DNA from: Escherichia coli
Lineage (GTDB): Bacteria; Pseudomonadota; Gammaproteobacteria; Enterobacterales; Enterobacteriaceae
Strand: one strand, 5' to 3'
DNA: 64,000 nucleotides
Assembly: GCF_003790525.1 (NCBI RefSeq)
Contig: NZ_CP033636.1
Shown: positions 11,668-61,185 of the stretch, in pieces
Position numbering within the stretch: the first letter of the stretch is position 1
Layout: each line of letters starts with the position of its first letter
Notes under the pieces: generated by a model
Told to the model about the DNA's origin: nothing
The model's input: the letters and a program-made list of their open reading frames with translations, nothing else
Database searches by the model: none
Made by a program: the position numbers and the translations under genes

Positions 11668-12673
11668 CACTAGTGAGGGGCGGCAGCGCATCAAGCGGTG
11701 AGCGCACTCCGGCACCGCCAACTTTCAGCACATGCGTGTAAATCATCGTCGTAGAGACGTCGGAATGGCCGAGCAGATCCTGCACGGTTCGAATGTCGTA
11801 ACCGCTGCGGAGCAAGGCCGTCGCGAACGAGTGGCGGAGGGTGTGCGGTGTGGCGGGCTTCGTGATGCCTGCTTGTTCTACGGCACGTTTGAAGGCGCGC
11901 TGAAAGGTCTGGTCATACATGTGATGGCGACGCACGACACCGCTCCGTGGATCGGTCGAATGCGTGTGCTGCGCAAAAACCCAGAACCACGGCCAGGAAT
12001 GCCCGGCGCGCGGATACTTCCGCTCAAGGGCGTCGGGAAGCGCAACGCCGCTGCGGCCCTCGGCCTGGTCCTTCAGCCACCATGCCCGTGCACGCGACAG
12101 CTGCTCGCGCAGGCTGGGTGCCAAGCTCTCGGGTAACATCAAGGCCCGATCCTTGGAGCCCTTGCCCTCCCGCACGATGATCGTGCCGTGATCGAAATCC
12201 AGATCCTTGACCCGCAGTTGCAAACCCTCACTGATCCGCATGCCCGTTCCATACAGAAGCTGGGCGAACAAACGATGCTCGCCTTCCAGAAAACCGAGGA
12301 TGCGAACCACTTCATCCGGGGTCAGCACCACCGGCAAGCGCCGCGACGGCCGAGGTCTTCCGATCTCCTGAAGCCAGGGCAGATCCGTGCACAGCACCTT
12401 GCCGTAGAAGAACAGCAAGGCCGCCAATGCCTGACGATGCGTGGAGACCGAAACCTTGCGCTCGTTCGCCAGCCAGGACAGAAATGCCTCGACTTCGCTG
12501 CTGCCCAAGGTTGCCGGGTGACGCACACCGTGGAAACGGATGAAGGCACGAACCCAGTGGACATAAGCCTGTTCGGTTCGTAAGCTGTAATGCAAGTAGC
12601 GTATGCGCTCACGCAACTGGTCCAGAACCTTGACCGAACGCAGCGGTGGTAACGGCGCAGTGGCGGTTTTCAT
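11668..12673 (-). pseudogene. intI1: class 1 integron integrase IntI1, 3' end disrupted by IS26 (nearly full length)
   Basis: Translation [20 protein letters not shown]... matches IntI1; about 335 native codons, then the reading frame runs into IS26. Confidence 0.9.
12558..12586 (+). promoter_or_regulatory. integron cassette promoter Pc, weak variant (TGGACA-N17-TAAGCT)
   Basis: Hexamers and 17-bp spacer read directly inside the intI1 coding region, oriented toward the cassettes. Confidence 0.75.
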
Positions 12674-12747
12674 GGCTTGTTATGACTGTTTTTTTGTACA
12701 GTCTATGCCTCGGGCATCCAAGCAGCAAGCGCGTTACGCCGTGGGTC

Positions 12748-19925: not shown

Positions 19926-20036
19926 GTTCCGCGTCCTTGCAATACTGTGTTTACATACAGTCTATCGCTTAGCGGAAAGTTCTTTTACCCTCAGCCGAAA
20001 TGCCTGCCGTTGCTAGACATTGCCAGCCAGTGCCCG

Positions 20037-44622: not shown

Positions 44623-45388
44623 ACCCGTTGTTCTGAGCGACCTTGACGACACGCTCTTTCAGACCCGTCGTAAAATGGTGGACGAGCTGGCCCTGGAGCC
44701 ATTCCGTACCGGTGCCGTTGATCGCACCCTGAATCCACGAAGCTTTATGACGGAAGAACAGTCCATGTTGGTGGACTGGCTCCTGGAGCAGGCTGAACTC
44801 ATACCTGTTACCGCCCGGGGAACTGAAGAAATCAGCCGCGTCCGGATCCCTTTCCACTCCTGGGCAATCACCACGCACGGGGCCGTCATTCTCACGCCTG
44901 AAGGCAAACCCGACGAGGAGTGGAAGGCCCATATGCTTGGCCAGCTGGCTCCCTACCAGGAAAAGCTGACATCGATGCAGCGTCTGATCACTGAAATGAT
45001 GGACGCAAAAGGGATCAATGCCTGGGCAAGGCTGAACTTCGAATACGGTGAAACGGCGGTTTATATGGTGATGAAGCACCGCGACAGCACCCGCCTTGAC
45101 GAGCTCAATGCCATTGCAGATGAGATAGAAACGGTGTTTCCGACCGAGGGCTTCTACATCCACCGCAACAGTAATAACGTGGCCTGGCTTCCCACCCCGG
45201 TTGAGAAAGGGCTGGCCGTCAGATGGCTGCTTGAAAAACTTCGGGCTGAACGCGGAGTCTTCCCCGTAATTGGCCTGGGCGACAGCCTGAGCGATCATCG
45301 TTTTATGAAACTGTGCAGCTGGTTTGGCATCCCGCGTCAGAGTCAGTTTGCAGATGCCATTTCACAGCGAATTTTTGGAGAAAATTAA
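44615..45388 (+). CDS. HAD-superfamily hydrolase (ter-linked)
   Basis: N-terminal motif VVLSDLDDTLF (DxDxT); ATG overlaps the preceding stop (atgaataa). Confidence 0.65.
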   Translation: MNKPVVLSDLDDTLFQTRRKMVDELALEPFRTGAVDRTLNPRSFMTEEQSMLVDWLLEQAELIPVTARGTEEISRVRIPFHSWAITTHGAVILTPEGKPDEEWKAHMLGQLAPYQEKLTSMQRLITEMMDAKGINAWARLNFEYGETAVYMVMKHRDSTRLDELNAIADEIETVFPTEGFYIHRNSNNVAWLPTPVEKGLAVRWLLEKLRAERGVFPVIGLGDSLSDHRFMKLCSWFGIPRQSQFADAISQRIFGEN

Positions 45389-45389
45389 A

Positions 45390-46469
45390 ATGCAGCCACA
45401 TGACACATTTACCGGCTCATACCAGCCCGGTGACGTGGAATTTCTGCTAAAGCCGGTTGTCATTGAGATGACGCCGGTTGAGCAAAAAGAAGAGCTGATT
45501 CAGTCAGGGAAGAAACATTATTCGGACATGCTCAGTCAGGAGCCAGCGCCAACACAATGGCATCTTGATTTGTTTCACCGGGCGCTGGATCGGGGCGCAG
45601 AGAGACTTGCAAAAGAAGTCACACAGCTCGCTATTGCTCTGGCCAAACGCTTTGGTGATGAGCCCATTGTACTGGCCAGTCTTGTCAGGGCTGGCGTGCC
45701 GCTCGGCGTTATGCTGCACCAGGCCCTGCGTGACATGGGGAAAACCTCATGGCATTACGGTATCAGCATTATCCGGGATCGTGGAATTGACGGTGCAGCC
45801 CTCGACGTCATTGAAGAGCGGCATGGTACCAGCGGTATTGTCTTTGTTGACGGATGGACAGGTAAAGGCGCAATTACCGGAGAGCTTGTACGCGCACTGA
45901 AAGATCGCCCGGGCTATCCTGAGCAGCCGCGACTGGTTGTCCTGGCCGATCCCTGTGGCTGCTCCTGGCTTGCAGCCAGTGATGATGACTGGCTCATTCC
46001 TTTTGGCATCATGGGTGCGCCGGTGTCAGGCCTGATCTCCCGGTCAGTGTGGTCCTCTGAAGGATTACACGGGTGCATGGTTTGCGAGCATCTCAGTGAA
46101 TTCGAATGCAGCCGGATGCTTGTCGATACCGTCGCTCATTTCCGTAAGAAGTTAACCCCGTCATCCCTCGCTCCCCTGAGCTGGAATACGGAGTCAGCCC
46201 GGATCTTATGGCAGACAAGTCGCGACGTTATCGCGTTCCTGGCCGATGAATTTAAAGTGGACAGCGTCAATCGTATAAAACCCGGTATTGCTGAAGCAAC
46301 CCGGGCTGTATTACGTCGGGTACCGGACCATGTATTTGTGCGTTCTATTGACGACCCGGACGTTGCCTTGCTTGTAGGGCTTGCTCGTGAAAAGGGAATA
46401 GTTGTTACAGAAATGGGGGGAACCCTCGGCCAGTATCGGGCTGTAACCATTATCAAGAAGGTACTTTGA
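45390..46469 (+). CDS. conserved ter-linked protein of unknown function (possible degenerate PRTase-like fold)
   Basis: 359-aa ORF from the ATG at 45390; segment IVFVDGWTGKGAITG loosely resembles a PRTase signature. Confidence 0.4.
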   Translation: MQPHDTFTGSYQPGDVEFLLKPVVIEMTPVEQKEELIQSGKKHYSDMLSQEPAPTQWHLDLFHRALDRGAERLAKEVTQLAIALAKRFGDEPIVLASLVRAGVPLGVMLHQALRDMGKTSWHYGISIIRDRGIDGAALDVIEERHGTSGIVFVDGWTGKGAITGELVRALKDRPGYPEQPRLVVLADPCGCSWLAASDDDWLIPFGIMGAPVSGLISRSVWSSEGLHGCMVCEHLSEFECSRMLVDTVAHFRKKLTPSSLAPLSWNTESARILWQTSRDVIAFLADEFKVDSVNRIKPGIAEATRAVLRRVPDHVFVRSIDDPDVALLVGLAREKGIVVTEMGGTLGQYRAVTIIKKVL

Positions 46470-47425
46470 TGAAAAATCGTCTTTCTCCCTGGAATCTGGG
46501 AGCCACGCTATACATGCCTGCAACACGGGAAGATATTGCTGATGCCGTCCTGCACGGGAAAATCCCGGGTTTGCGCTCTCTGGTGATTTGCCTGGAGGAT
46601 GCTGTCAGTGAAGCAGACATCCCCGTCGCCCTCAAAAATCTGGAGCACCTGCTGCACGAGCTCAGTAACAGCATGCATAGCCTGGGTAAAAATGACTGGC
46701 CTCTGGTGTTCATTCGCCCCCGGCATGCCGAAATGGGCAGATGGTTAAAAGCGCATTATGATCTTTCCGCTGTCGACGGGTTTGTGTTGCCGAAATTTAC
46801 CCTCAGTTCGTTAGCTGAATGGTGGGATATCATGGGCGGGACTCACCTGTGCATGATGCCAACGCTGGAAACAGAAGACGTCTTTGACGTGGTTCAGATG
46901 CGGGAGCTGGCCACCCGTCTGGTGGAACATCCCTGCCACGACCGCATTATTGCGCTTCGAATCGGCGGCAACGATCTTATGAACGTTGTGTCGCTTCGCC
47001 GTCCCCGGGACCTGACGCTGTATGACAGCCCGATGGGCTACGTCATCAAAATGCTCGTTTCGGTCTTCGGCCCGCGTGATTTTGCCCTGACCGCGCCCGT
47101 ATGTGAGCATATTGACGATCATGCCGTAATGGCCAGAGAGCTGGCTCTTGATATGGCACATGGGCTTGTTGGGAAAACGGCCATTCACCCGGGTCAGATA
47201 GAGGTCATTCAAAACGCGCTGATGGTCACTCAGGGTGAGCATTCTGACGCTCTGCGGATCCTGAACTCTACCCAGGCCGTGTTTAAGTCGCAGGGAGCAA
47301 TGTGTGAACCCGCCACACATCGCCGCTGGGCGGCTGGCATTCTGGACAGAGCTCGTTTTTATGGGTTACAGAACGAGCAAAGCGCTGATGGAATCAGATT
47401 ACTTACCGTGACCCAGCATCATTAA
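46469..47425 (+). CDS. CitE/HpcH-like aldolase or citrate-lyase beta-like TIM-barrel protein (ter-linked)
   Basis: Pattern ...LYMPATR...LRSLVICLEDAV resembles CitE/HpcH; ATG overlaps the preceding stop codon. Confidence 0.55.
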   Translation: MKNRLSPWNLGATLYMPATREDIADAVLHGKIPGLRSLVICLEDAVSEADIPVALKNLEHLLHELSNSMHSLGKNDWPLVFIRPRHAEMGRWLKAHYDLSAVDGFVLPKFTLSSLAEWWDIMGGTHLCMMPTLETEDVFDVVQMRELATRLVEHPCHDRIIALRIGGNDLMNVVSLRRPRDLTLYDSPMGYVIKMLVSVFGPRDFALTAPVCEHIDDHAVMARELALDMAHGLVGKTAIHPGQIEVIQNALMVTQGEHSDALRILNSTQAVFKSQGAMCEPATHRRWAAGILDRARFYGLQNEQSADGIRLLTVTQHH

Positions 47426-47435
47426 GGAAATCATA

Positions 47436-48644
47436 ATGGGGTTCAGATTCAGAAAGTCGATCAACATTATTCCTGGTGTTCGCCTCAACCTGAGTAACGG
47501 TGCACCGAGCCTGAGTGTCGGGCCGAGAGGTGCTTCCGTTTCTTTTGGAAGCCGGGGGACCTATGCCAATCTGGGCTTGCCCGGTACCGGGCTGAGTTAC
47601 CGTACCCGGCTTGATCGGGCCGCGCGTTCCGGAGGTGGGAACCGGACGGCTACCGACCCGGGGCTCAGACAGGCGCTTGAGGAGGAAGCCGCTGATCTCA
47701 TGTCAGCGGTGACCGCAATCCGTAATATTCACGAGCTGACGCCGGATCCTAAAACAGGCATCAGCTGGGCAGAGCTGGAAGCAGTATACCTGCATAACAG
47801 AACGTCGCCTTTTCAGGTTCCGGCACCGGTGCGTCCAGAAAAGCCAGACTATCTTGCATTGCCGGAAAAGCCTGCCGAGAGCGAAGGCATTAGTTTTCTG
47901 GGTAAATGGTTTGAATCGGAATCAGCTAAAGCTGAGCGCCACGCCGAAAATCTTCGCCGGTGGCAGCAGGAGCTGATTGATGTGGAGCGTGAGAATACCC
48001 TTCGACAGCACCGGTACCAGCAACAACGGACGGCCTGGGCCGAACAGTATGCAAACTGGAAGTTTGAGGCTGAAGAACATGAAAAACGGCTCGCCACGGC
48101 TCAGGCAGATGCCCGGCAGCAGTTCCGGACAGACGCCGCGTTTTTCGAATCATACCTGGCGGGTGTGCTGGCAGAAACTGAATGGCCGCGTGAAACGCTT
48201 GTTGCATTTGAAGTAAAGCCGGAGCTATCAGCAGTCCTGCTGGATGTTGATTTAGCTGAGATTGAAGATTTCCCTGATAAGATTTACGGCGTTAATGCCC
48301 GGGGCACGGAGCTGACGGAAAAAGCCATGACGCAAAAAGCCGTACGCGAAAACTATGCCCGCCACGTCCATGGCTGCTTGTTCCGCCTGGTCGGTATCGT
48401 TTTACATACGCTACCGTTCGACAACGTGATTGTGTCAGGCTTTACGCAACGGGTCAGTAAGCGGACCGGCTATCTGGAGGATGAGTATATCCTGTCCTGC
48501 AAATGCAGTCGCAGCCAGATGTCGTCAGTAAATTTTGCAGGCTTAGAACACATTGATCCGGTTGAAGCGTTAGGCGATCACCCGGTTATTCGAAAGATGA
48601 GCAGTACCTTCATTTTTCAGCCTATTGAACCACTAACCCTTTAA
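47436..48644 (+). CDS. DUF4236-domain protein (ter-linked)
   Basis: N-terminus MGFRFRKSINIIPGVRLNLSNGAPSLSVGPRGASVSFG is characteristic of DUF4236 as recalled. Confidence 0.5.
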   Translation: MGFRFRKSINIIPGVRLNLSNGAPSLSVGPRGASVSFGSRGTYANLGLPGTGLSYRTRLDRAARSGGGNRTATDPGLRQALEEEAADLMSAVTAIRNIHELTPDPKTGISWAELEAVYLHNRTSPFQVPAPVRPEKPDYLALPEKPAESEGISFLGKWFESESAKAERHAENLRRWQQELIDVERENTLRQHRYQQQRTAWAEQYANWKFEAEEHEKRLATAQADARQQFRTDAAFFESYLAGVLAETEWPRETLVAFEVKPELSAVLLDVDLAEIEDFPDKIYGVNARGTELTEKAMTQKAVRENYARHVHGCLFRLVGIVLHTLPFDNVIVSGFTQRVSKRTGYLEDEYILSCKCSRSQMSSVNFAGLEHIDPVEALGDHPVIRKMSSTFIFQPIEPLTL

Positions 48645-48661
48645 GCAGGCTAAATCTTACG

Positions 48662-49129
48662 ATGCAATTAAATACCAGACAGGCCCGGATTTTTAAGCTT
48701 GCCAACTTACTGGGCACCGGCAAGCCCGTTTCCGCTGCCGACATTATAACCAGTCTGGAATGCTCAGAGCCGACATTAACCCGGGCACTCAAAGAGCTAC
48801 GCGAGTCATATTCTGCGGAGATCAAATACAGCAAGGCAGGTCATTCCTACCATCTCGTTAATCCGGGCCAGCTGGATAAAAAGACCCTTCGCCGGATGAA
48901 TGAAGCGCTCGCACAGAATGCTGAACTGAAAACCGGTGAGTCCACAGGGAAGGTCGTACTCGATAAGGATAAAAAAACAGCCGTGTCATTATCGCTACGC
49001 ATGCGGATTTTAAGAAAAATTGACCGTCTGGCTGCGCTGAGTGGCTCGACCCGAAGTGAAGCGGTAGAGAAGCTGGCTCTGCACTCCGTTGATGAACTGA
49101 TAAAAGAATACAGCGCTAAAAAGTCCTGA
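48662..49129 (+). CDS. terW: putative transcriptional regulator TerW
   Basis: 155-aa HTH-like protein at the end of the ter-linked operon; length and position fit TerW; recall-based. Confidence 0.55.
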   Translation: MQLNTRQARIFKLANLLGTGKPVSAADIITSLECSEPTLTRALKELRESYSAEIKYSKAGHSYHLVNPGQLDKKTLRRMNEALAQNAELKTGESTGKVVLDKDKKTAVSLSLRMRILRKIDRLAALSGSTRSEAVEKLALHSVDELIKEYSAKKS

Positions 49130-49143
49130 CGCTAAATCTCAGA

Positions 49144-49168
49144 CCGGGGTGAAAACCCCGGTTTTGTC
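49144..49168 (+). terminator. intrinsic terminator downstream of terW
   Basis: CCGGGG-TGAAAA-CCCCGG hairpin followed by TTTTGTC, 15 nt after the terW stop. Confidence 0.7.
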
Positions 49169-49591
49169 ATATTTCACCTCTGTATCTGCGTGACGGAGTT
49201 TTGATCTATTCTCCTCCCGCAATGTCAGCAGCGCCTTTCTGCCTACAAAACCTGGTGTCTTGACATCCTCTTGTGCTACACATCAATCTTTGGGCGATTT
49301 ACACTCCATTCATGCAGATCTGTGATGTATGATGATTTTCATACATAAGAAAGTTTATTTTTGCCGGAGTTTTTTTCAGAAATTTATATTCCAGTACGGT
49401 CTGAATTTTTTTCTCTGATAAGAGGCCATTCACATGTCGGTAATTCAATGGTGGTTAACTTATTTCTTTAATGCCGCTTCTGAGTATTTAATCTCCACCC
49501 GACAGATGTCGTGCCGTTTTATCAAATCTACAAACTCTGGCCTCTTCCTGAAACTACTCTCCTCTTCCGATCTCTTAAGAAGGAATTACAT

Positions 49592-50230
49592 TTGAGACGC
49601 TTACCCGTATATCTGCTACTCGACACGTCCGGCTCTATGCACGGAGAGCCTATCGAAGCGGTTAAGAATGGCGTTCAGACGCTGCTTACCACGCTGAAAC
49701 AGGATCCGTATGCACTCGAAACGGCTTACGTGTCAGTGATCACCTTTGATTCTTCAGCCCGACAGGCAGTCCCCCTGACAGACCTCCTGAGTTTCCAGAT
49801 GCCAGCACTAACAGCCAGCGGCACCACCTCTCTTGGCGAAGCGCTTTCCCTCACGGCCAGCTCCATTGCCAAAGAAGTACAGAAAACGACGGCTGACACT
49901 AAAGGTGACTGGCGTCCCCTTGTATTCCTGATGACGGATGGAAGTCCGAATGATGACTGGCGTAAAGGCCTGAATGACTTTAAAGCGGCCAGAACCGGCG
50001 TTGTTGTGGCATGTGCAGCCGGGCATGATGCCGATACCAGCGTCCTCAAAGAAATCACTGAAATCGTGGTTCAGCTCGATACAGCTGACAGTTCGACGAT
50101 TAAAGCTTTCTTTAAATGGGTCAGTGCGAGCATTTCGGTAGGCAGTCAGAAAGTGGAGTCCAGCAAAAAAGAAGTGATCGGTCTTGAAGACCTGCCACCG
50201 CCGCCGCCAGAAGTAAACGTGGTCTTATAA
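49592..50230 (+). CDS. terY: vWA-domain protein, TerY-like paralog 1 (TTG start inferred)
   Basis: MIDAS motif LLLDTSGSM; start set at TTG (RRLPVYLLLDTSGSM) to match the 213-aa paralog; the ORF track starts 27 codons earlier at ATG. Confidence 0.6.
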   Translation: MRRLPVYLLLDTSGSMHGEPIEAVKNGVQTLLTTLKQDPYALETAYVSVITFDSSARQAVPLTDLLSFQMPALTASGTTSLGEALSLTASSIAKEVQKTTADTKGDWRPLVFLMTDGSPNDDWRKGLNDFKAARTGVVVACAAGHDADTSVLKEITEIVVQLDTADSSTIKAFFKWVSASISVGSQKVESSKKEVIGLEDLPPPPPEVNVVL

Positions 50231-50252
50231 TTTTATTAATTAAGGGGATGTC

Positions 50253-50894
50253 ATGTCTGTCAGTCTGAGCAAAGGCCAGGGCGTAAGCCTGAAAAAAAAT
50301 GAATACGATCTCTCGTCCGTTACTATCGGCCTGGGTTGGGATATTAATGAGGAAAAGAAAGGTTTCCTCGGCGGGATCTTTGGTAAAAAAGAAGAAGAAT
50401 ACGACCTTGATGTGATCGCTTTCCTGTGTAATTCAGCCGGAAAGGTGACCGATCTCGGCAATGTGGAAAATGGTAAACCAACGCTTGTGAATGGCGATAT
50501 CATCTTTTTCAACAGCCTTCGCCATAAGTCAGGAAATATCTGGCTGACGGGCGATAACCGAACCGGAGCCGGTGATGGTGACGATGAGCAAATTATTGTG
50601 CGCCTGAATTCCCTTGACGCTCAGTACGAGAAAATTGTGTTCATCGTTCAGATCTACAATGGTGAAAAGCTCCAGCAGCACTTTGGTAAAGTTCAGAATG
50701 CCTTCATCCGGGCAGTAGATGCCCGTAATATTGAAATGGCACGATTCGATCTTTCTGGCGGACCCGCCTTCGCCAGCCAGCGCTCCATGGTTTTTGCCGA
50801 GCTGATACGCGAGGCTACAGGCTGGAAACTCAGGGCAATTGGTGAGCCTTCAGAATCAGATTCGTTTGTCTCGCACCTGAGGAATTACATGTGA
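50253..50894 (+). CDS. terX: TerD-family protein TerX
   Basis: 213-aa translation [30 protein letters not shown]... with the GDNRTGAGDGDDE motif. Confidence 0.75.
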   Translation: MSVSLSKGQGVSLKKNEYDLSSVTIGLGWDINEEKKGFLGGIFGKKEEEYDLDVIAFLCNSAGKVTDLGNVENGKPTLVNGDIIFFNSLRHKSGNIWLTGDNRTGAGDGDDEQIIVRLNSLDAQYEKIVFIVQIYNGEKLQQHFGKVQNAFIRAVDARNIEMARFDLSGGPAFASQRSMVFAELIREATGWKLRAIGEPSESDSFVSHLRNYM

Positions 50895-51532
50895 TGCGCC
50901 GCCTGCCTGTTTACCTTGTTATCGACACATCCGGCTCGATGCGCGGTGAGTCCATCCATTCCGTTAACGTTGGAATTCAGGCGATGCTTAGCGCTCTTCG
51001 CCAGGATCCCTACGCCCTCGAAAGCGTTCATATCTCCATTATCACCTATGACAATGAGGCGCGTGAGTTCATTCCTCTCACGCCGCTGGAAGACTTCCAG
51101 TTTTCTGACATCGTTGTGCCAAGCGCAGGCGGGACGTTCACCGGTGCTGCCCTTGAATGTCTGATGCAGTGTGTTGAACGGGATGTACGTCGCTCAGATG
51201 GTGATACAAAAGGAGACTGGCGTCCTCTGGTATTCCTGATGACTGATGGAACCCCTTCTGATGCCCTGGCGTACGGTGAAGCGGTAAAAGCGATTCGCGG
51301 CCGGGGATTCGGATCCATCATTGCCTGCGCCGTTGGTCCTAAAGCAGGCCATGAGCACTTAAAACAGCTCACCGATAAGGTTGTGTCTCTGGAGACGCTA
51401 GATTCAACCGCGTTTGCAGGTTTCTTTAAATGGGTATCGGCCAGCGTGTCTTCCGGCAGCACAAGCGCGGGGATCAATAACGGAACTGATACCCTTCCCC
51501 CTCCTCCACCAGAAATCCAGCTGGTGCTCTGA
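50894..51532 (+). CDS. terY: vWA-domain protein, TerY-like paralog 2
   Basis: MRRLPVYLVIDTSGSMRGES...; ATG overlaps the terX stop by 1 nt. Confidence 0.7.
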   Translation: MRRLPVYLVIDTSGSMRGESIHSVNVGIQAMLSALRQDPYALESVHISIITYDNEAREFIPLTPLEDFQFSDIVVPSAGGTFTGAALECLMQCVERDVRRSDGDTKGDWRPLVFLMTDGTPSDALAYGEAVKAIRGRGFGSIIACAVGPKAGHEHLKQLTDKVVSLETLDSTAFAGFFKWVSASVSSGSTSAGINNGTDTLPPPPPEIQLVL

Positions 51533-51617
51533 CAGACAGAAAGGTGCTGCTTTCCGGGCAGCACCTTTCTGTACAGCAACGTTTTCTGCTGGCCGTACCA
51601 GCCGTACGAGGAAAATT

Positions 51618-52658
51618 ATGAGACGCCTTCCCGTGTTTTTTGTCCTGGACTGTTCAGAGTCCATGATTGGTGAAAACCTGAAAAAAATGACTGATGGTCT
51701 GCAAATGATCATCGGAGATTTAAGAAAGGATCCACACGCACTTGAAACAGCCTGGGTTTCGGTAATCGCATTTGCCGGTGTAGCCCGTACGATTGTACCT
51801 CTTCACGAAATTGCCTCGTTCTACCCTCCCCGCCTTCCCGTTGGCGGCGGTACGAGCCTTGGGGCCGCATTGCGTGAGCTGACCGTACAAATTGATACCC
51901 AGGTCAGAAAAACCACTCATGAGGCTAAAGGCGACTGGAAACCCGTCGTGTATCTCCTTACCGACGGACGTCCGACTGACGACACAACCGCAGAAGTGAA
52001 GCGCTGGAAGGATCACTACGCGAGTAAAGTGAATCTCATTGCCGTTGGCCTGGGGCCGTCAGCGGACCTGAATACCCTGCGGCAACTGACAGAGAATGTC
52101 ATGCTGTTCACCGAGTCTCAGGAAGGGGACTTTACCCGCTTCATCAAATGGATCACAGCCTCGGTTACGGCGCACAGCCGCAGCGTCGGAGACGACAAAC
52201 AACCTGAGCTCAGCCAGACTGAATACATAGTCCGGCTGGCCAAGGACGAGCCAGTAAAAGCGTACGACGAAAACTGCGTTACGCTTACCGGCCGTTGCAG
52301 CAAGACCCGTCGTCCGTATCTGATGAAGTATGAACGGCCACCAGCAAGGATTTCCGGGCTCGATTTCAGCCTGAACCTGAACAGCTTTAATATTGCCGGA
52401 TGCTATCCCATCGATGAAGACTATTTTGCATGGTCAGATGCCACCGCTACCGGTTTGCAGGTAAACACCAGCGAACTGCATGGCGTACCGGGTTGCCCTC
52501 ACTGCGGTAATGCCAGTGCGTTTGCCCTGTGCTCATGCGGAAAATTGCTGTGCATTGACGGCCCGGATGACGTGATCTGCCCGTGGTGTGAAACAGGTCT
52601 GTCATTCAGCAATGATGGCGGAAACACTAACTTCGACGTAAACAGAGGGAGAGGTTGA
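51618..52658 (+). CDS. vWA-domain protein, TerY-like paralog 3, with C-terminal Cys-rich zinc-ribbon-like tail
   Basis: MRRLPVFFVLDCSESM...; C-terminus CPHCGNASAFALCSCGKLLCIDGPDDVICPWC. Confidence 0.65.
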   Translation: MRRLPVFFVLDCSESMIGENLKKMTDGLQMIIGDLRKDPHALETAWVSVIAFAGVARTIVPLHEIASFYPPRLPVGGGTSLGAALRELTVQIDTQVRKTTHEAKGDWKPVVYLLTDGRPTDDTTAEVKRWKDHYASKVNLIAVGLGPSADLNTLRQLTENVMLFTESQEGDFTRFIKWITASVTAHSRSVGDDKQPELSQTEYIVRLAKDEPVKAYDENCVTLTGRCSKTRRPYLMKYERPPARISGLDFSLNLNSFNIAGCYPIDEDYFAWSDATATGLQVNTSELHGVPGCPHCGNASAFALCSCGKLLCIDGPDDVICPWCETGLSFSNDGGNTNFDVNRGRG

Positions 52659-54295
52659 TGTCGCAAAATGTTTTACTTGAAGAGAAGATTATCCGCTTAG
52701 TGCTGTCTGAGCTGGGCCACCCTGTAGAAGGTGAGCGGCTTTTTCTTCTATCGCACGACCCTTCCCTTACTGAAGAGATTATGCGGCTTAAAGAGCGGAT
52801 TGAGAGCCTTGCACAGGGTTTATCTGCGCGGGTTAGCGAAGGTTATAACGACGCAGAGATCGCCCCCTCGTCAGCATCCAGCCTTTCCGATCAGCAACAA
52901 ACGGTCGTAAGTGATGCTGATAACCCGGGCATTGACGCTACCGATACACCATTACTGCAACCCCTGCCAGAAAATGAACCTCATCCTCCGTTCTGGAAGC
53001 TGATGCCTTATTACGAATTTGATAAACCAGCACAGAGGGAAGACGAAAACCTGTCTTCCCTGGTATTAAAACCCGGGCAGATACCGACAGGCCAGCAGCG
53101 GGCCGGATTAGCTGTGCCACCTGCCGTTCCCCCGAGAGCTAAAATAGTTATTCCCAACGCCCGCGCAGGCGAACGTTTCTCTTCGCCGGTTGCTATAGTT
53201 CTGGATGAGGGCCAGCAGGCTACTGTCAGGGACGTTGTCTTTCCCAGGAACATTGGCCTGACCTTTGACAAAGAGCATAAGTTGCTGACAGGTACACCCA
53301 CCGAAAGCGGCGATATAGAGCTTTCAGTACTCTGGTCATGCGCTTCGCACGACGAATGCGAAACAAAACAGCTTTTTATAGTCAATCCCGATCCGAGAAG
53401 CCTGTGGAAGGTGGTAGAGCCACCAGCAGACGCTTCCTACCCTAAGTCCCATCTGGACGCTGCTGGCCTGGTCAGGGGTGACATACGTATTGCTGCCGCC
53501 AGTCGCCGGGGACGATCTCATGAGCATGCCGGGAGCTTCAGAGATGACGACTTCTATATCAACCACTGCCAGGAAACAGGATGGTCTGTCATGCTGGTCG
53601 CAGACGGGGCCGGTAGTGCGGTAAATTCCCGGGAAGGCTCCCGGATTGCAGTCCAAACGGCTGGCGATTACCTTTTCAATCAGCTCAGTGGTTTGAAAGG
53701 CGTCCATCTAAAGCAGCACATCACGGCGTGGGAAGGGAGCGATCAGCAGGCAACCATAAACGCCATGCTTCATCATTTTAAACAGGCAGCTACGCTCGCG
53801 GTCAACAGTATCCAGAACGAAGCCATTTGTGCAGAACAACCTGTGAAATCCTATTCAACAACCCTACTGGCAACTGTAGCGCTACGAACTGATAACGAGC
53901 TGTTTGCGGCTGCATTCTGGCTTGGTGATGGTGCGATAGGTGCATACAGCCCTTCCGGTAAAGTCAGGATACTGGGAAATCCCGATAGCGGAGAATACGC
54001 AGGACAAACCCGCTTTCTTGACCAGAGCATTATCGCAGACCCCTCGTTTAGCGGCCGCATCAGCGTGGGTAAATGGAATGATGTATCTCACTTGATCCTC
54101 ATGACAGATGGCGTATCAGACCCTCTGTTTGAGACAGATAACGGGCTTCGCAGTGACGAAAAATGGACCCGTCTCCTTGATGAGCTCATCCCTGTCCTTA
54201 CAGACGCCAGTATTGCGCCTGAGAGGTTAGGCGACTGGCTTAACTTTTTCTCCACAGGGAACCACGATGACCGCACTATTGCGGTGTTGTGGTAA
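52658..54295 (+). CDS. PP2C-family Ser/Thr protein phosphatase
   Basis: Motifs MLVADGAGS and MTDGVSD in a 545-aa ORF; ATG overlaps the previous stop. Confidence 0.65.
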   Translation: MSQNVLLEEKIIRLVLSELGHPVEGERLFLLSHDPSLTEEIMRLKERIESLAQGLSARVSEGYNDAEIAPSSASSLSDQQQTVVSDADNPGIDATDTPLLQPLPENEPHPPFWKLMPYYEFDKPAQREDENLSSLVLKPGQIPTGQQRAGLAVPPAVPPRAKIVIPNARAGERFSSPVAIVLDEGQQATVRDVVFPRNIGLTFDKEHKLLTGTPTESGDIELSVLWSCASHDECETKQLFIVNPDPRSLWKVVEPPADASYPKSHLDAAGLVRGDIRIAAASRRGRSHEHAGSFRDDDFYINHCQETGWSVMLVADGAGSAVNSREGSRIAVQTAGDYLFNQLSGLKGVHLKQHITAWEGSDQQATINAMLHHFKQAATLAVNSIQNEAICAEQPVKSYSTTLLATVALRTDNELFAAAFWLGDGAIGAYSPSGKVRILGNPDSGEYAGQTRFLDQSIIADPSFSGRISVGKWNDVSHLILMTDGVSDPLFETDNGLRSDEKWTRLLDELIPVLTDASIAPERLGDWLNFFSTGNHDDRTIAVLW

Positions 54296-54320
54296 GGGAT
54301 ACGCTTCTTCGGTGATCAAT

Positions 54321-55820
54321 ATGGCAAATATTGTTACGTGCAAAACAAAGGACGGCGAAACAGTCCAGTATGTTGACGAGGTAATTGGTTCGGGCTCGAT
54401 GAAGGATGTTTACTTCTCGCCTGATAAATCATACGTCGTCGCTTTTTATCATAAACCGCAGAACGAGCAGGCCCGGGATCGGATTGATATGATCACCGGA
54501 CGCTACAGGCAAAACATTTTTGGCCAGTCCGGAGGTGAATACTGGAAGGACCTGTTTTGCTGGCCGACCCACGTTGTTGAGCATGGGGATAAAATCGGCA
54601 TCGTGGTTCCAACCTACAAAAGCTACTTTTTCTTTAAATACGGCTCTAAAAACGATGATTTTCTTGGCATAAAAGGCCGTGAAAAGGAAGGCAAATGGTT
54701 TGCCAGCGCCAGCAACCAGAATAAATTTCTCGACCCACGTGAACGAGGCAATACGCTTACCTATCTCAAGGTCTGTCTGCTGCTAACAAGAGCCGTCAGA
54801 AGGATGCATGCGGCAGGTCTCTGTCACAGCGATCTAAGCTATAAAAACGTGCTTATCGATCCAGAAATGGGACATGCCTGCATCATTGACGTAGACGGCC
54901 TGGTTGTCCCTGGAAAGTATCCTCCCGACGTCGTGGGCACCCCGGATTTTATCGCTCCGGAAGTGGTGAAAACCAGCCATCTTTCCAAAGAGGATCCGAA
55001 CCGCGTATTGCCAAGCATTTCTACTGACCGTCATGCGCTGTCGGTGCTTATCTACATGTATCTGTTCTTCCGTCATCCGCTACGTGGCGGAAAAATACAT
55101 GACATGTCGGATGAAGTACGTGATGAGACCTTATCTATGGGTGAGAAGGCACTCTTCATTGAACATCCGACAGACAAAAGCAATGCAGTCAAAGTCAGTC
55201 AGCTATCCTCCTTTTCACTGCCCTGGGCTGACCCGGAGAAAATTCCTTACACCATCATGGGCCCTTATTTGACGCCTTTGTTTGAACGCGCCTTTATTGA
55301 TGGCTTACACGATGCCAATAAACGCCCGACCGCCGATGAGTGGGAAAGTGCCCTGGTTAAAACAGTCGATCTGATACAGCCCTGCCAGAACAAGGCGTGT
55401 GAACAGAAATGGTACGTTTTCTCAGGTAAGACAAAGCCGGTTTGTCCCTACTGCGGTACGCCATACAAGGGTAAATTACCGGTTCTAAATTTATATTCAT
55501 CCCGAAAGGAAGGCAGTTATCGTCCTGACGACCACCGGTTGATGGTGTGGAGCGGGCAGTCAATCTATGCGTGGCATGTGAATCGCCTCATTGCGCCAAA
55601 TGAGCGCACAACCGATGCACAAAGGAAACGAGTTGGGTATTTTGTTTTCCATAACGATCAGTGGTGGTTAGTAAATGAAGGCATAAATGGGCTTATGTCA
55701 TTACCGGATAAACGACAGATTGCCATTGGGGAAAAAATTGAACTGACGAATAACGCTCAGTTTGTTCTGTCAAAGGAGGAAGGCGGCAGGCTGGTCGTCG
55801 TTCAGTTAGTTGAAAACTAA
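54321..55820 (+). CDS. Ser/Thr protein kinase with C-terminal zinc-ribbon
   Basis: Catalytic-loop-like HSDLSYKNVLID and IIDVDG; Cys cluster CQNKACEQKWYVFSGKTKPVCPYCG; start at the ATG of MANIVTCK. Confidence 0.65.
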   Translation: MANIVTCKTKDGETVQYVDEVIGSGSMKDVYFSPDKSYVVAFYHKPQNEQARDRIDMITGRYRQNIFGQSGGEYWKDLFCWPTHVVEHGDKIGIVVPTYKSYFFFKYGSKNDDFLGIKGREKEGKWFASASNQNKFLDPRERGNTLTYLKVCLLLTRAVRRMHAAGLCHSDLSYKNVLIDPEMGHACIIDVDGLVVPGKYPPDVVGTPDFIAPEVVKTSHLSKEDPNRVLPSISTDRHALSVLIYMYLFFRHPLRGGKIHDMSDEVRDETLSMGEKALFIEHPTDKSNAVKVSQLSSFSLPWADPEKIPYTIMGPYLTPLFERAFIDGLHDANKRPTADEWESALVKTVDLIQPCQNKACEQKWYVFSGKTKPVCPYCGTPYKGKLPVLNLYSSRKEGSYRPDDHRLMVWSGQSIYAWHVNRLIAPNERTTDAQRKRVGYFVFHNDQWWLVNEGINGLMSLPDKRQIAIGEKIELTNNAQFVLSKEEGGRLVVVQLVEN

Positions 55821-55986: not shown

Positions 55987-57099
55987 TTATAAAAGTGAAT
56001 AATTTTGTGACTCTACCCTGCCGCTCTTCTTTCCAGTGTCATGGTTTTTAACATCTGAAATACTGACATTGTTAAGCCGGTGATTGTAAAAGGCGATGCG
56101 GACAATCTCATGAAGATATTCAAGTTCGTTTTGTGTCAAGGACTGGCCTTCCTGGGTTTTTGAAATCATTTCCTGCCAGCAGATCAGTCTTTCGTAACTG
56201 ACATGTTCGCTGTTTTCCAGGCAGTGCAACCTGAAATAGCGAAGGAACAAAGGAAATTCATCGGTCTGAGCGATGTCATAAGCCCGAACCGTTAACCGAC
56301 ACAGACATACAATCGTATCCTGCTGTAACCTGACTAGCGCGTTATGACTGCCCGGAAGGATATCAGGCAATTTCATCTTACAGTCAGCAAGGCGCTGAAG
56401 AAGAGGCCCTTCCTCTGAAGGCTCCCGTCCCCGATACTCCTGAAGAGGTTCAGATTCAAGTTCATGCATTAATGGATGATATAGCCATTCCCGGGAACTG
56501 GTCTCATCAATGATCAGGCTTTCAATGCACTCACTGTATGTTGTTTTACGTCGCCCGAGCTGCACCTGACTGATTTCATATTCAATATCAGGAAGATCGA
56601 TACGCAATGCGGCAACTCTTTCGGAAGGATGAAGATGGTCAAAGGTTAACTTCTCTGAAATGCTGCGATCCCTGTCCAGAAAGACGGCCACACATAAATC
56701 ATTAACCTTTACGAACAGATCAGCTGTGCCTCCGAACATACTGCCGCTTCCACTAACCTCATTCAGTGAAACCGGCCCACCATCGTCGCCAGCGAGAAGA
56801 TTTGGGAAACCAAGAACCTGGTGCTCGTTGATGACTTCAATAATCTTTCCCCGGATGGCTTCCATCAGACCATCACAGTCACCGGCTACAGCTGTACTGT
56901 GTGAGAAATGCCAAAGCTTGACCTCCCCCTGCTTTGCTAACAGATCAGTTTTGCAAGCGGGGCAGATGCAGTTACAGTCAATACCCCGGCTGACCTCTGT
57001 AATATCTAAAAAGAGTCCTGATTCTCGCTGGAGTCCAAATGGAATACCAAATGTATAACTCTTACGCATGGCTGCACCCCGTTTTTGATAATGATTCAA
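55987..57099 (-). CDS. CoiA-like zinc-finger protein (competence-protein CoiA family, predicted nuclease-related); start uncertain
   Basis: Motif DCNCICPACKTDLLAKQGEVKLWHFSH resembles the CoiA N-terminal zinc-finger/HFxH signature; recall-based. Confidence 0.4.
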   Translation of the reverse strand: MNHYQKRGAAMRKSYTFGIPFGLQRESGLFLDITEVSRGIDCNCICPACKTDLLAKQGEVKLWHFSHSTAVAGDCDGLMEAIRGKIIEVINEHQVLGFPNLLAGDDGGPVSLNEVSGSGSMFGGTADLFVKVNDLCVAVFLDRDRSISEKLTFDHLHPSERVAALRIDLPDIEYEISQVQLGRRKTTYSECIESLIIDETSSREWLYHPLMHELESEPLQEYRGREPSEEGPLLQRLADCKMKLPDILPGSHNALVRLQQDTIVCLCRLTVRAYDIAQTDEFPLFLRYFRLHCLENSEHVSYERLICWQEMISKTQEGQSLTQNELEYLHEIVRIAFYNHRLNNVSISDVKNHDTGKKSGRVESQNYSLL

Positions 57100-57429
57100 A
57101 CTATATCCGAAATAACGGAGGAGGATTTCTGTAAAACGTATTAAAAGAAATGATTTTTCCGTCTTCCAGATTAATGTTTGACAAAAATCAAATGAGAGCC
57201 TTACAAATATTGAGAGAGAAGTTTAGGTAAAGTAACTTTTATCACTTCTAATAAAATGAAGGAGAATATCGGATGTATTTAGCAGTGGGCTTGGCTTATG
57301 ATTAAAGTTTTTCTCCGAACTTAATAAACAACTTTAAAAGACAGGCTATTACAATGCCTTTAGCCCCGAAAGGGGCATAAACTATTTTCAAATCTAGGCA
57401 CAGTCTTTTTGTTGTGCCAATATTAATAA

Positions 57430-57648
57430 TTACTCGCGAACAAAGGTCCACACACTCGCAGGAACTTTGTCATATAACTTTTTCATTGTCAGTTCGGCTT
57501 TACGATGATCATAAGCACCAGAAATTTCAAGAGAGGCGACACCCGAGTTTTTTTCACATAACCTTTCAAATACTTTTTCGAGCGTTTCGAACGAACTACA
57601 CTTACGGAATTTCATTAAATAAGACTGCTTTGTGTCAGACATAATCAA
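57430..57648 (-). CDS. hha: Hha/YmoA-family nucleoid-associated modulator
   Basis: Translation ...KQSYLMKFRKCSSFETLEKVFE...DHRKAELTMKKLYDKVPASVWTFVR aligns by eye with E. coli Hha. Confidence 0.7.
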   Translation of the reverse strand: MIMSDTKQSYLMKFRKCSSFETLEKVFERLCEKNSGVASLEISGAYDHRKAELTMKKLYDKVPASVWTFVRE

Positions 57649-57803
57649 CCTTCTTTAGACAGGCCTCAACTGGCCAGGGATAATCTTAATATCATTTTTC
57701 ACTTAAGCCTAACGATTTCACAACCTTTTTCGTTGTTTCCACCCTGTTCATAACCAGGTACATGAGTGCTAAAATGACCTGTAATTAAAACCAGTGTATC
57801 CCG

Positions 57804-58988
57804 GTGAGCAGGATGAAGAATCAATCAGTGATCAGACAGTTTTCGGAAAGCGAATTGCATCAGCAGCTGGAAACGTTCGGCAACCATGATAAACAGCTTT
57901 CACGCTTGATCCGTTACTTTTCCCATCTGAGATACAACACTGCTAAAACCTATCTGCACTGGCTACGAGTATGGAACGAATGGTATCTGGCGAATGCCCG
58001 GTTGCATACAGACTGGCCAGTAAGTTCGCTCCCCGTGTCTGAGGACGCTCTGCTTGCGTTTATGGGGCATCTTGAAGGCAAATTGTCACGAAGCAGCATA
58101 AACAGCTGTCTTCAGGCCTTAAATAGTATCCATAAAAAAGGGCTTAACCTGCCCGGGATTATTACGTCTGAAGCATGGTACATGCTGGAAGCCTTAAAAC
58201 AATCGGAAGCCCGGAAGCGAAAGACGACTAAACAGGCAACTCCCTTTCTTATTGGCGATCTCAAGGCTCTGATAAAGTTACGCAGTACTACAAACTCAGT
58301 TCGTAAACTTCGTGACCTGTGCCTGATCTGGACAGGCTTTGAAACACTGCTCCGTTCATCCGAAATTCGACGTATACGTCTGAAAGATCTGTCTCTGGAT
58401 AGTATGACCGGTGAATTTAACCTGACGGTATACCGTACAAAAACGAACATTAGTACACTTCTTACCTACCGGCTGACACGTCAGTTAACTAACTGCCTCT
58501 TGAGATTGATGAACCTCGTGAAAATGGATCAGCACAGTCATCCGGATGAATTCCTTTTCCAGGCCGTAAATTTCCATGATACAGGCTATATGCCACCCGG
58601 CTGGAAGCTTCGGAGTAAGGGGAATGAGCTATCTGAACTTCTTAAAAGGCATAACCTACCCTATCGTGCTAAGCAAAGTCTTCTGAACGATGAAGATGAA
58701 GAAGACACTGTGGACGATGCCGGTATGCTCAGCAAAAATTCCCTTTTACGAGCATTTAAAGAGATGTGGAATGAGCTTTATCCAAATGAGACTAAAACTC
58801 GTTACTGGACAGGGCACAGCGTTCGTGTAGGCGGAGCGATACAGCTAAATATTGAAGGTTACTCGCTACCACAGATTATGGAAATGGGGAACTGGTCGAA
58901 TGAAGAAATGGTTATGCGCTACATTCGTAATATTGAAGCTGGTAAAAAAGCAATGATCAAGCTTATGCGAAATGCCTTTGATGAATAG
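57804..58988 (+). CDS. tyrosine site-specific recombinase (phage-integrase family)
   Basis: C-terminal catalytic signature ...HSVRVGGAIQL...MEMGNWSNEEMVMRYI (His/Arg/Tyr region). Confidence 0.65.
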   Translation: MSRMKNQSVIRQFSESELHQQLETFGNHDKQLSRLIRYFSHLRYNTAKTYLHWLRVWNEWYLANARLHTDWPVSSLPVSEDALLAFMGHLEGKLSRSSINSCLQALNSIHKKGLNLPGIITSEAWYMLEALKQSEARKRKTTKQATPFLIGDLKALIKLRSTTNSVRKLRDLCLIWTGFETLLRSSEIRRIRLKDLSLDSMTGEFNLTVYRTKTNISTLLTYRLTRQLTNCLLRLMNLVKMDQHSHPDEFLFQAVNFHDTGYMPPGWKLRSKGNELSELLKRHNLPYRAKQSLLNDEDEEDTVDDAGMLSKNSLLRAFKEMWNELYPNETKTRYWTGHSVRVGGAIQLNIEGYSLPQIMEMGNWSNEEMVMRYIRNIEAGKKAMIKLMRNAFDE

Positions 58989-59009
58989 CGCCCTCACGGG
59001 CGCATAACT

Positions 59010-59360
59010 TTATTTTTTCTTGAACGGGTTAAGTCTGGTGAGATTAGAGAGTGCCCCTCCCGGAGGCAAAATTCCCGTTCTTTTATATTTGTACACGCCA
59101 TTTAATTTCATTGTCTGGATTCCAAGATTAATAAGCGTGACAAGTTTAAGGGTATACAGAAGTGTAAATTGTGGAGCAACCTGAATAAAAACCAATAACA
59201 AGCCTGCACACATTACACGTAGCCATGCCGCGTACTCCATGCTCAGCGGACGCTTGAAATAGAATCTTTCGAGCAAATCAACTGTCTTATTACTGATCCA
59301 CGCCGCCGCCACGGAGAGTAACAACACGATGCACACCATAATGCCCAGTTCCATTTTCAC
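59010..59360 (-). CDS. hypothetical membrane protein
   Basis: 116-aa ORF with two hydrophobic segments. Confidence 0.3.
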   Translation of the reverse strand: MKMELGIMVCIVLLLSVAAAWISNKTVDLLERFYFKRPLSMEYAAWLRVMCAGLLLVFIQVAPQFTLLYTLKLVTLINLGIQTMKLNGVYKYKRTGILPPGGALSNLTRLNPFKKK

Positions 59361-60204: not shown

Positions 60205-61185
60205 TTAATTTTCGGGGCTGACAATGAAAATGCCCAGCTCAGCCCCCGGCACGAGTTCTGTATATTTCAGGCTCAGCTTCCGTTGGTTGGACGGGCCCTG
60301 GCTGTTTTCAGGAGCCCAGTCAGAGAGCGTTTTTAATTGAGGTATGTTGCCTGCTGCGAAAATGGGCAAGGATGCTTTTACTACTGAATAATCAGTCTCA
60401 GCATATTTATTCCCGTTTCGTTCCTGCCCTTCAGGCCTAAATGCAAAAATGTGAGCAATCGGAACAGGGAAAGAGTTAGTTCGACAAAGGCGATAAGATT
60501 CGCCCTGCTTCAGTGGGTGAAATTCAAGACGGTGTAAAGCCTTATCGATATTAGACACGACATTCAAATTGGTAGTTGCTACATTTTTTACTTCTGAGGC
60601 TCTCCTGCGCTCCAACAAACTCACAAGTTGCTCTGCTGTTTTAACTTCCTGGTTTCGGTTTAGCCGCCATGAAAAAGTAACTTTTTTAAGCTGGGACTTG
60701 ATGAAAAGGACATTTCTTGTTGAGTGCATAGCGACAAGGCCCGGGAGCTTCTTGTGCACTTTATCAAAACGGACATTCTTTTTATTATCGATACGCCTCA
60801 TTGCCGCAGCAAAATCATTTTTTGCTTCATTTATAGATGTGATCAAGCTTTCGAGAAGATCTGCTCTTTCTGGGACAATGATAAGACCCGGGTATTTAGT
60901 GGTCACTTTGGTGGAATCATGACTTAATGACTCTATGTCATCCACACAGATGTCAGTAAGTGCCTGAATAATTTCCTCAACCGAAGCATCGTCTTTAACA
61001 CTAACCCTGATGGGTTTAACCTGCTTCAGTCGCTCTTCTGTTCGAGATACGGTGGAGACAGTCATCAGGTTTGCCATCAGCGGGGGGGTGTTCGAAAGAA
61101 AACACTTAAGCGAGTCGATACGTTCCAGAATCTGGTCACGAAAATAGGGCAAATCGTCATAACTCATACGTTTCTCCAGGCTCAT
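60205..61185 (-). CDS. possible Tus-like replication terminus-binding protein
   Basis: By-eye similarity to E. coli Tus over KVHKKLPGLVAMHSTRNVLF...FSWRLNRNQEV...LVSLLER; low-identity, unverified. Confidence 0.35.
   Translation of the reverse strand: MSLEKRMSYDDLPYFRDQILERIDSLKCFLSNTPPLMANLMTVSTVSRTEERLKQVKPIRVSVKDDASVEEIIQALTDICVDDIESLSHDSTKVTTKYPGLIIVPERADLLESLITSINEAKNDFAAAMRRIDNKKNVRFDKVHKKLPGLVAMHSTRNVLFIKSQLKKVTFSWRLNRNQEVKTAEQLVSLLERRRASEVKNVATTNLNVVSNIDKALHRLEFHPLKQGESYRLCRTNSFPVPIAHIFAFRPEGQERNGNKYAETDYSVVKASLPIFAAGNIPQLKTLSDWAPENSQGPSNQRKLSLKYTELVPGAELGIFIVSPEN

Follow-up and report, generated by a model that had tools for sequence, protein, structure and literature searches.

Orthologues of the two genes described here are found on the IncHI1 plasmid R27 as R0182 and R0183, which a supplementary table citing the 2000 R27 map lists as hha and "put. 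cre", respectively (PMC4853401); the Cre likeness of the recombinase is thus not new. Thermoregulation of IncHI conjugation has been credited to Hha together with H-NS (PMC6764697). In a systematic deletion study of R27, removal of R0182 and R0183, singly and in combinations, caused no instability in Escherichia coli MG1655, and the effect of a larger deletion was mapped to incC (PMC4853401). Our literature search found no report on the function of R0183 and none linking LexA or the SOS response to an IncHI recombinase, older papers on R27 and R478 lying outside that search. Here we analyzed the orthologous pair in a 64,000-nucleotide stretch of E. coli DNA (assembly GCF_003790525.1, contig NZ_CP033636.1), referred to below as the window, whose 57.4-59.0 kb region is IncHI2 plasmid backbone. 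A 2.2-kb query covering the two genes matched 1,131 plasmids in PLSDB at an identity of at least 95%, mostly conjugative and from E. coli, Salmonella and Enterobacter. One fully matching record is typed IncHI2A, and its genes are annotated as a Hha/YmoA family nucleoid-associated regulatory protein and a tyrosine-type recombinase/integrase. The pair as such is not new, these being ordinary, long-annotated backbone genes of IncHI-type resistance plasmids. What goes beyond the annotation, and is modestly interesting, is a predicted, conserved LexA-type operator on the promoter of the Cre-type recombinase; a preliminary description of the locus, correct in what it observed and partly right in its interpretation, had overlooked both the Cre type of the enzyme and this conserved box. 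We favor the reading that the two are functionally separate backbone genes and that the recombinase is an SOS-induced Cre-type enzyme that would resolve plasmid multimers, and we put the probability of this statement as a whole at about 0.5.

The preliminary description had placed a tyrosine recombinase gene divergent to the Hha-like gene. Both the enzyme and the divergent arrangement hold up, the latter being conserved, with the start moved from that of the mechanically called open reading frame (ORF; 57804-58988) to the ATG at 57813, which is the likely true start and matches the annotation. The protein matches the Pfam Phage_integrase domain, a generic one, with an E value of 1.8e-13 (51 bits; cut-off 27.1). 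Searched with phmmer against solved structures, it has P1 Cre as its best match (E 1.9e-23), with stretches 40-256 and 332-390 covering both domains, and all significant matches in the structure database were P1 Cre or Cre derivatives. The only relatives in phage records were P1-type Cre (26.6% identity) and the C-terminus of D6 Dre. In an alignment of 13 family members and Cre, residues R181, K210, H335, R338, W361 and Y370 are invariant and align with Cre R173, K201, H289, R292, W315 and Y324; all six catalytic residues, among them the tyrosine and arginines that had been singled out for checking, are therefore present. Compared with Cre, the family has roughly 55 additional alignment columns, and within this insertion residues 266-274 and 282-303 fall below 50 in predicted local distance difference test score (pLDDT) in an AlphaFold2 model of mean pLDDT 75.7. 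When this model was submitted to Foldseek, the top 33 matches in the Protein Data Bank (PDB) were all Cre or Tre (E 2.5e-18, template modeling (TM) score 0.70 on the Cre length), and a second tier composed of the integron integrase IntI (E 5e-9) and also XerH followed far behind. The NCBIfam XerC model scored the protein at 17.1 bits against a cut-off of 335. By sequence and by modeled fold, then, the recombinase is of the Cre type and not a Xer protein. Recombination without accessory factors would be expected of a member of that class.

The recombinase gene is preceded by a predicted sigma-70 promoter, a LexA-type box and a Shine-Dalgarno-like sequence (Table 1). The promoter scan gave matches at 9 of 12 positions with a TG ahead of the -10 hexamer, and the TGCTAnAAT element aligns across lineages, as does AGGTG/GGTGA at the Shine-Dalgarno position in the closer ones. 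The box starts 2 nt past the -10 hexamer, spans the expected transcription start and stops 7 nt before the Shine-Dalgarno sequence, so that it is flanked on the left by the -10 element and on the right by the ribosome-binding site. In the hha-recombinase spacers conservation is confined to the 65-90 bp that directly precede the recombinase start, the remaining intergenic DNA having diverged, and the promoter and LexA-type box form the only conserved non-coding block in the module. A palindrome over the -35 region, CCTG-TTCATAAC-CAGG (57743-57758), was considered as a second binding site and set aside, as it is not palindromic in the IncHI1 or Klebsiella lineage.

The box was scored with a position weight matrix derived from 20 E. 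coli LexA boxes. These training boxes score 13.2-27.5 bits, and 7.4-26.7 bits when each is left out in turn (quartiles 16.3, 19.7 (median) and 22.3). The 64 kb contain only three sites that reach 13 bits, the chance rate of sites of at least 13.2 bits being 0.0075-0.022 per kb, and the recombinase box is the third best of them. The second best, at 16.2 bits, served as a control: this box, GACTGTTTTTTTGTACAGTC (12684-12703), directly precedes intI1, which encodes the class 1 integron integrase (11561-12673, minus strand), and is a LexA site reported as validated by electrophoretic mobility shift assay and described as a classic operator (PMC3108266). A second control came from phage P1, whose record carries an annotated LexA site; this site scored 20.0 bits. 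The top LexA-like box in the window, TACTGTGTTTACATACAGTC (19943-19962, 22.3 bits), lies between a truncated ORF of the major facilitator superfamily (MFS; tetA-like) and a gene pair that consists of a lysR-like gene and an MFS efflux gene (floR-like by eye).

Each of the 16 loci examined, which represent roughly 11 distinct lineages and recombinase identities of 36-100%, has a box of 13.0-23.8 bits in the corresponding place. Between this box and the true recombinase start downstream of it are 11-46 nt, and a TGnTAnAAT -10 element immediately precedes it. One Klebsiella plasmid carries the near-consensus box TACTGTTTATAAAACCAGTA, and a second large IncHI2 sub-lineage shows two sequence changes, both of which spare the CTG and CAG triplets. 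From the sequence and position of the box, we consider control of the recombinase promoter by LexA quite probable. In a lineage with 45-47% recombinase identity, tandem LexA-like boxes, TACTGTAATAAATTACAGGTGTAATAAATTACAGGG, were observed (L008, 175-210); on this contig phage lysis genes, not a Tus-like gene, come after the recombinase.

Multimer resolution is the most reasonable putative function for the recombinase. SOS-gated multimer resolution is the best-supported mechanism because the gene has replication and Tus-like neighbors, because the enzyme is related to Cre and because no second copy of non-coding module DNA was found in the window. The module abuts replication functions in several lineages, namely a RepB gene (L004), a Rep3 gene with iterons (L009 and L014) and, in R27, the gene for the RepFIA-like E protein R0179. 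Of the 13 loci that offer enough sequence past the recombinase gene, 12 have a gene with a Ter domain, predicted to encode a Tus-like protein, two to four genes further downstream. In L009 (2886-3575) and L014 (520-1265), hha directly adjoins an iteron-type origin beside the Rep3 initiator gene, with repeated ACGGTC..TAGTCCAT units, the DnaA-box-like TTATCCAC and GATC-rich AT stretches. In the mechanism that we propose, LexA would keep the recombinase off in undamaged cells. DNA damage, or single-stranded DNA entering by conjugation, would activate RecA, LexA would cleave itself and the recombinase would be made. The enzyme would then assemble in the manner of Cre at a putative site, probably present once per plasmid copy, and turn multimers that arise from RecA-dependent recombination back into monomers.

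Several points weigh against SOS-gated multimer resolution. Single deletion of R0183, which is 64% identical to the recombinase, left stability unaltered in recA+ MG1655 (PMC4853401; data not shown in that study). The assay used unstressed cells without SOS induction or a multimer readout, and stability in R27 is backed up by several further systems. The finding speaks against an essential role in maintenance as long as cells are unstressed; LexA repression may account for the absent phenotype under such laboratory conditions, and the same outcome would be expected of a LexA-repressed gene for which partition and killing systems stand in. Further, no conserved palindrome of the form 13-(6-8)-13 with at least 11 of 13 matching arm positions was found within ~4 kb at ten loci and in the window, and the dif consensus, allowing up to three mismatches, had no match in the window, which contains no dif/cer-like site. 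The missing obvious site is not in itself unusual, since the discovery of Cre-type systems depends on a palindrome no more than 1 kb away from the gene and succeeds only about half the time (PMC10250229). At 15.8 bits, the box ranks within the bottom quarter of real boxes under the matrix drawn from 20 sequences. The counts of box conservation are not independent, as the 16 loci are related and perhaps 11 lineages are distinct. The operator is also not indispensable: in pKAM622_2 (L019, NZ_AP026394.1, 51-150), one of ~1,130 plasmids, the right half of the box is replaced, giving CCTGTAAATAAAAGAATCAAATCCCGG, and the inserted GAATCAA duplicates the start of the coding region, making this natural IncHI2 plasmid an operator-disrupted variant. 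Finally, both LexA binding and SOS induction of the recombinase are predictions from sequence.

The preliminary description had noted no recombination sites, and this remains true after systematic searches for inverted repeats and cer/dif-like sequences. The best lox-like candidate, AATCTAGGCACAG-TCTTTTTG-TTGTGCCAATATT at 57391-57424 with 10 of 13 arm positions matching, was rejected as part of an IncHI2-specific insertion absent from other lineages; lying just past the hha stop codon, this element is more likely a hairpin or terminator. The palindrome upstream of the recombinase was likewise discarded as a lox core. Its symmetry beyond the LexA core is random (0.277, with 0.25 expected by chance), so it is not a 13-8-13 Cre-type site. 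A palindrome downstream of hha in L009 lies inside the iteron/DnaA-box origin, and its differences from L014 are not compensatory. Across lineages the only positionally recurrent palindrome is the GC-rich terminator hairpin at the recombinase stop codon, and scans of the window and loci picked up nothing other than terminators, attC-like sites and one 13-7-13 hairpin of the ter region. The last of these is the perfect palindrome AGAAAGGTGCTGC-TTTCCGG-GCAGCACCTTTCT (51538-51570), a probable hairpin or terminator between a VWA-domain and a TerY-C-domain gene of the tellurite-resistance-associated cluster. A search was also made for Ter-like sites at which the Tus-like protein could bind, and the apparent enrichment of TGTTGCAAATA was traced to IS26 terminal repeats.

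The main rival explanation accepts SOS induction of the recombinase and assigns it a different reaction, namely rearrangement of DNA by integration or excision, cointegrate formation or resolution with other replicons, or inversion at sites in other parts of the plasmid, which exceeds 200 kb. The enzyme would then resemble the integron integrases, which are freed by LexA under stress to reshuffle DNA. Indeed, the best-known LexA-controlled tyrosine recombinase, IntI, is a rearranger and not a resolver (PMC3108266), and the unaffected stability of R27 lacking R0183, the failure to find a simple adjacent site and the inspection of a 64-kb portion of the plasmid all leave room for such a role. 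On the other side, no candidate sequence is duplicated in the window, Cre, the closest characterized relative, uses one site per replicon, and the enzyme is conserved beside replication and termination genes, not cargo. Moreover, the only structural polymorphism evident beside the gene among the 1,131 near-identical plasmids is an insertion-sequence insertion in three records. The preliminary description had suggested inversion as one possibility; within the window this is unlikely because the 64 kb contain no second copy of any non-coding sequence of the module. Overall, we consider a rearranging function unlikely, without dismissing it. A formulation that spans both reactions, in which an IncH-type Cre-family recombinase is locked by LexA, is produced only upon DNA damage or shortly after conjugative entry, and acts at a non-palindromic site, either as damage-gated dimer resolution beside Tus, a plasmid analogue of dif with FtsK, or as an SOS-triggered switch for rearrangement or cointegration, is tentative. 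The IncH-type plasmids include mcr-bearing IncHI2 plasmids as well as large plasmids of Klebsiella with IncFIB or other replicons.

The conserved palindrome could alternatively be the site of another factor, such as the recombinase itself in an autoregulatory circuit or a plasmid regulator, in which case the link to the SOS response would fall away. LexA binding here is predicted, the IncHI2 box has CCAG instead of ACAG and that of L006 (13.0 bits) has CTA instead of CTG, and inverted repeats close to the recombinase gene are a frequent target of tyrosine recombinases. However, the conserved part is the exact LexA signature, CTG and CAG separated by 10 bp that are rich in A and T, and the near-random symmetry outside it is unlike the 13-bp arms of Cre-type sites. 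Recombinases that share only 36% identity are unlikely to share a recognition sequence, whereas the specificity of LexA is constant across Enterobacterales. The same matrix, in addition, recovers both the intI1 box and the annotated P1 LexA site. A non-LexA palindrome is, in our judgment, quite unlikely.

The other gene of the pair had been described as encoding an Hha/YmoA-like small protein, and Pfam HHA and alignments to the PDB structures of Hha and YmoA bear this out, with the start corrected to 57642, where the RefSeq-annotated start maps (the mechanical ORF is 57430-57648). The protein matches Pfam HHA over profile positions 1-56 of 57 (E 9.3e-19, 67.9 bits; cut-off 25) and the solved structures of Hha (E 4e-16) and YmoA (E 5e-15), and shares 90% identity with the Hha of the R27-type IncHI1 plasmid pHCM1 and 51% with E. 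coli Hha. The DHR motif is kept, AYDHRKAELTM aligning with AADHRLAELTM of E. coli Hha, and D45, H46 and R47 are nearly invariant across the Hha alignment. In E. coli Hha the equivalent aspartate of this motif, D48, contacts H-NS. The NCBIfam model for the chromosomal Hha subfamily, NF008191, scored 75.6 bits, which is below its cut-off of 90 and marks the protein as a plasmid-type paralogue and not the chromosomal Hha. By analogy, it would bind the N-terminal domain of chromosomal or plasmid-borne H-NS and reinforce plasmid gene silencing, of which temperature-dependent repression of conjugation is a part; the 90% identity and the published IncHI role both point to H-NS binding and co-silencing. 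Thermoregulation of conjugation with H-NS is, by orthology, its most likely role. The best reading of Hha is that it is a known H-NS partner and an independent neighbor of the recombinase.

In a tblastn search, relatives of the recombinase were found on 2,748 plasmids (E 1e-10 or better), which fall into IncHI2 plasmids with at least 95% identity, IncHI1 and related plasmids with 60-80%, and mostly Klebsiella plasmids with ~37%; there were no F-type plasmids among them. A scan of one genome per species for further relatives added two Klebsiella loci only. Our synteny survey covered annotated regions and contigs with graded homologues at 75-37% identity. The block order is CoiA_N-like gene, hha, recombinase, two small ORFs and Tus-like gene, with synteny running several genes past tus. 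L007, L013 and L015 have a CoiA_N-domain gene upstream of hha and in the same orientation; in L007 and L015 it is the immediate neighbor. As synteny extends on both sides, the hha/recombinase pair is part of a vertically inherited block and not a self-contained two-gene unit. The Hha-like gene had been expected to be conserved in related plasmids, and it is.

The preliminary description had read the pairing as functional, and on this reading Hha with H-NS would silence the recombinase promoter or organize the recombination site as an accessory factor. Divergent adjacency is seen in 14 of the 15 loci with a visible upstream side, down to 36% recombinase identity, and nucleoid proteins act as accessory factors in other resolution systems. 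The adjacency is explained by common descent of the backbone, however, because the ~9 kb block is syntenic as a whole. The two genes are also separable by their sequences, with hha dispensable in two lineages: in L006, a Photorhabdus plasmid contig, hha appears to be frameshifted or truncated (3561-3755; 64 amino acids with no Pfam match) next to an intact recombinase gene, and in L010, a Rahnella-type contig, a 2.2-kb gene is inserted between hha and the recombinase. Their evolutionary rates differ widely (IncHI1-IncHI2 identities of 90% for Hha and 64% for the recombinase), and the intergenic DNA is only ~58% A+T and conserved only at the promoter and LexA box. Thus the conserved adjacency noted earlier stands, and the functional two-gene unit, in the face of the longer syntenic block, the apparent L006 frameshift and the L010 insertion, is not supported; we regard such a unit as a long shot. 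That the recombinase is instead a functionless relic of an ancestral phage-plasmid Cre system whose site was lost would fit the missing site and the R27 deletion without phenotype, but is very improbable given that full-length ORFs, six invariant catalytic residues and a conserved promoter and operator persist in diverged lineages down to 36% identity, which speaks for long-term purifying selection.

Table 1. Features of the hha-recombinase module and its neighborhood (window coordinates)
Feature	Position	Strand	Basis or remarks
hha, plasmid-type Hha/YmoA-family H-NS co-regulator, 70 amino acids	57430-57642	-	WP_001285422.1
Predicted sigma-70 promoter of the recombinase gene	57747-57775	+	-35 TTCATA (57747-57752), 17-nt spacer, extended -10 TGC-TAAAAT (57770-57775)
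LexA-type SOS box ACCTGTAATTAAAACCAGTG, CTG-N10-CAG, A/T-rich center	57777-57796		Position weight matrix, 15.8 bits
Shine-Dalgarno-like GGTGAG	57803-57808	+	Read from the sequence
Cre-type tyrosine recombinase, 391 amino acids, R27 R0183 orthologue	57813-58988	+	PDB sequence search, Foldseek, catalytic residues
GC-rich hairpin GCGCCC-TCAC-GGGCGC, then T-run	58988-59018		Terminator of the convergent recombinase and small membrane-protein genes; read from the sequence
CoiA_N-domain protein	55987-57099	-	Pfam CoiA_N, E 6.3e-08; conserved hha neighbor upstream in several lineages
Small ORF, 116 amino acids, hydrophobic, suggesting a membrane protein	59010-59360	-	Conserved and syntenic in other lineages
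ORF, 301 amino acids	59290-60195	-	Conserved; between the recombinase and Tus-like genes
Tus-like replication-terminus-binding protein	60205-61185	-	Pfam Ter, E 4.6e-19

The 116- and 301-residue ORFs had no match in Pfam, NCBIfam or PHROG. Upstream of the module, ~45100-55820 (L001, 1-10721) holds the IncHI2 tellurite-resistance-associated cluster, which includes terW, genes with VWA, TerD and TerY-C domains, a PP2C phosphatase gene and a protein kinase-like gene (54267-55820). Elsewhere in the window, GGCACTGTTGCAAATA occurs five times (10853, 17488, 23553, 24351 (minus strand) and 29508), three of the copies having identical longer flanks. These copies resemble IS26 terminal inverted repeats and presumably mark a multi-IS26 resistance region at ~10-30 kb.

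The plasmids concerned are IncHI1 plasmids of S. Typhi, IncHI2 plasmids of E. coli, Salmonella and Enterobacter, and large plasmids of Klebsiella that are related to them. Should the recombinase indeed be SOS-induced, antibiotics that trigger this response, such as quinolones, as well as conjugation, would turn on a site-specific recombinase of clinical resistance plasmids, and plasmid maintenance or rearrangement under treatment would be affected, depending on the reaction. Characterization of its site would provide a new orthogonal Cre-type recombinase/site pair, the enzyme being ~26% identical to Cre, for genome engineering. To our knowledge, it would also be the first LexA-gated Cre-type system.

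Among known systems, XerCD/dif with FtsK resembles the locus in that dimer resolution takes place near replication-termination functions, the counterpart here being the Tus-like neighbor. The ftsK gene has an SOS-inducible promoter (dinH), so part of the XerCD/FtsK system is LexA-responsive. By contrast, the IncH recombinase falls far below the Xer threshold and is accompanied by no dif/cer-like sequence. ResD/rfsF of F and Rsd/crs of the Salmonella virulence plasmid are integrase-family resolvases encoded beside the replicon on large low-copy enterobacterial plasmids, and their sites are not simple lox-type palindromes. We know of no LexA control of ResD or Rsd. They differ from the IncH recombinase in not being detectably close to it, as reflected in the lack of F-type plasmids among the tblastn matches.

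IntI1, encoded in the same window, is likewise a tyrosine recombinase of a mobile element with an E. coli-type LexA box over its promoter (PMC3108266), and the two boxes have near-equal scores (16.2 bits for intI1 and 15.8 bits for the recombinase). IntI1 belongs to another branch of the family, however, with IntI being only a second-tier fold match (E 5e-9), and it joins folded single-stranded attC with attI, whereas no integron-like structure lies beside the IncH recombinase. In R27, R0182 and R0183 are direct orthologues in the same arrangement beside the Tus-like R0186. There hha is neighbored by IS1 and a RepFIA-like replicon, in contrast to the CoiA_N-like gene and tellurite-resistance region of IncHI2.

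Cre/loxP of phage P1 serves in dimer resolution and cyclization of this plasmid prophage. Cre is the best match of the recombinase in both sequence (E 1.9e-23) and fold, the two have the same catalytic set including the tryptophan at W315, the alignment reaches the last helix of Cre, and both are encoded on a low-copy extrachromosomal replicon. The differences are that the IncH enzyme, ~26% identical to Cre, contains the insertion of roughly 55 columns, much of it modeled at low confidence, and that no 34-bp palindromic site like loxP is found near its gene. The P1 record (L017, NC_005856.1, 46-65) also annotates a LexA site, ACCTGTAAATCCATACAGTT, between lox and cre. This site is 28 bp from the right arm of lox and ~370 bp upstream of cre, and is assigned to the divergent P2coi promoter. 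Thus, in P1 the LexA site is located on the coi promoter, whereas the IncH box sits on the promoter of the recombinase itself.

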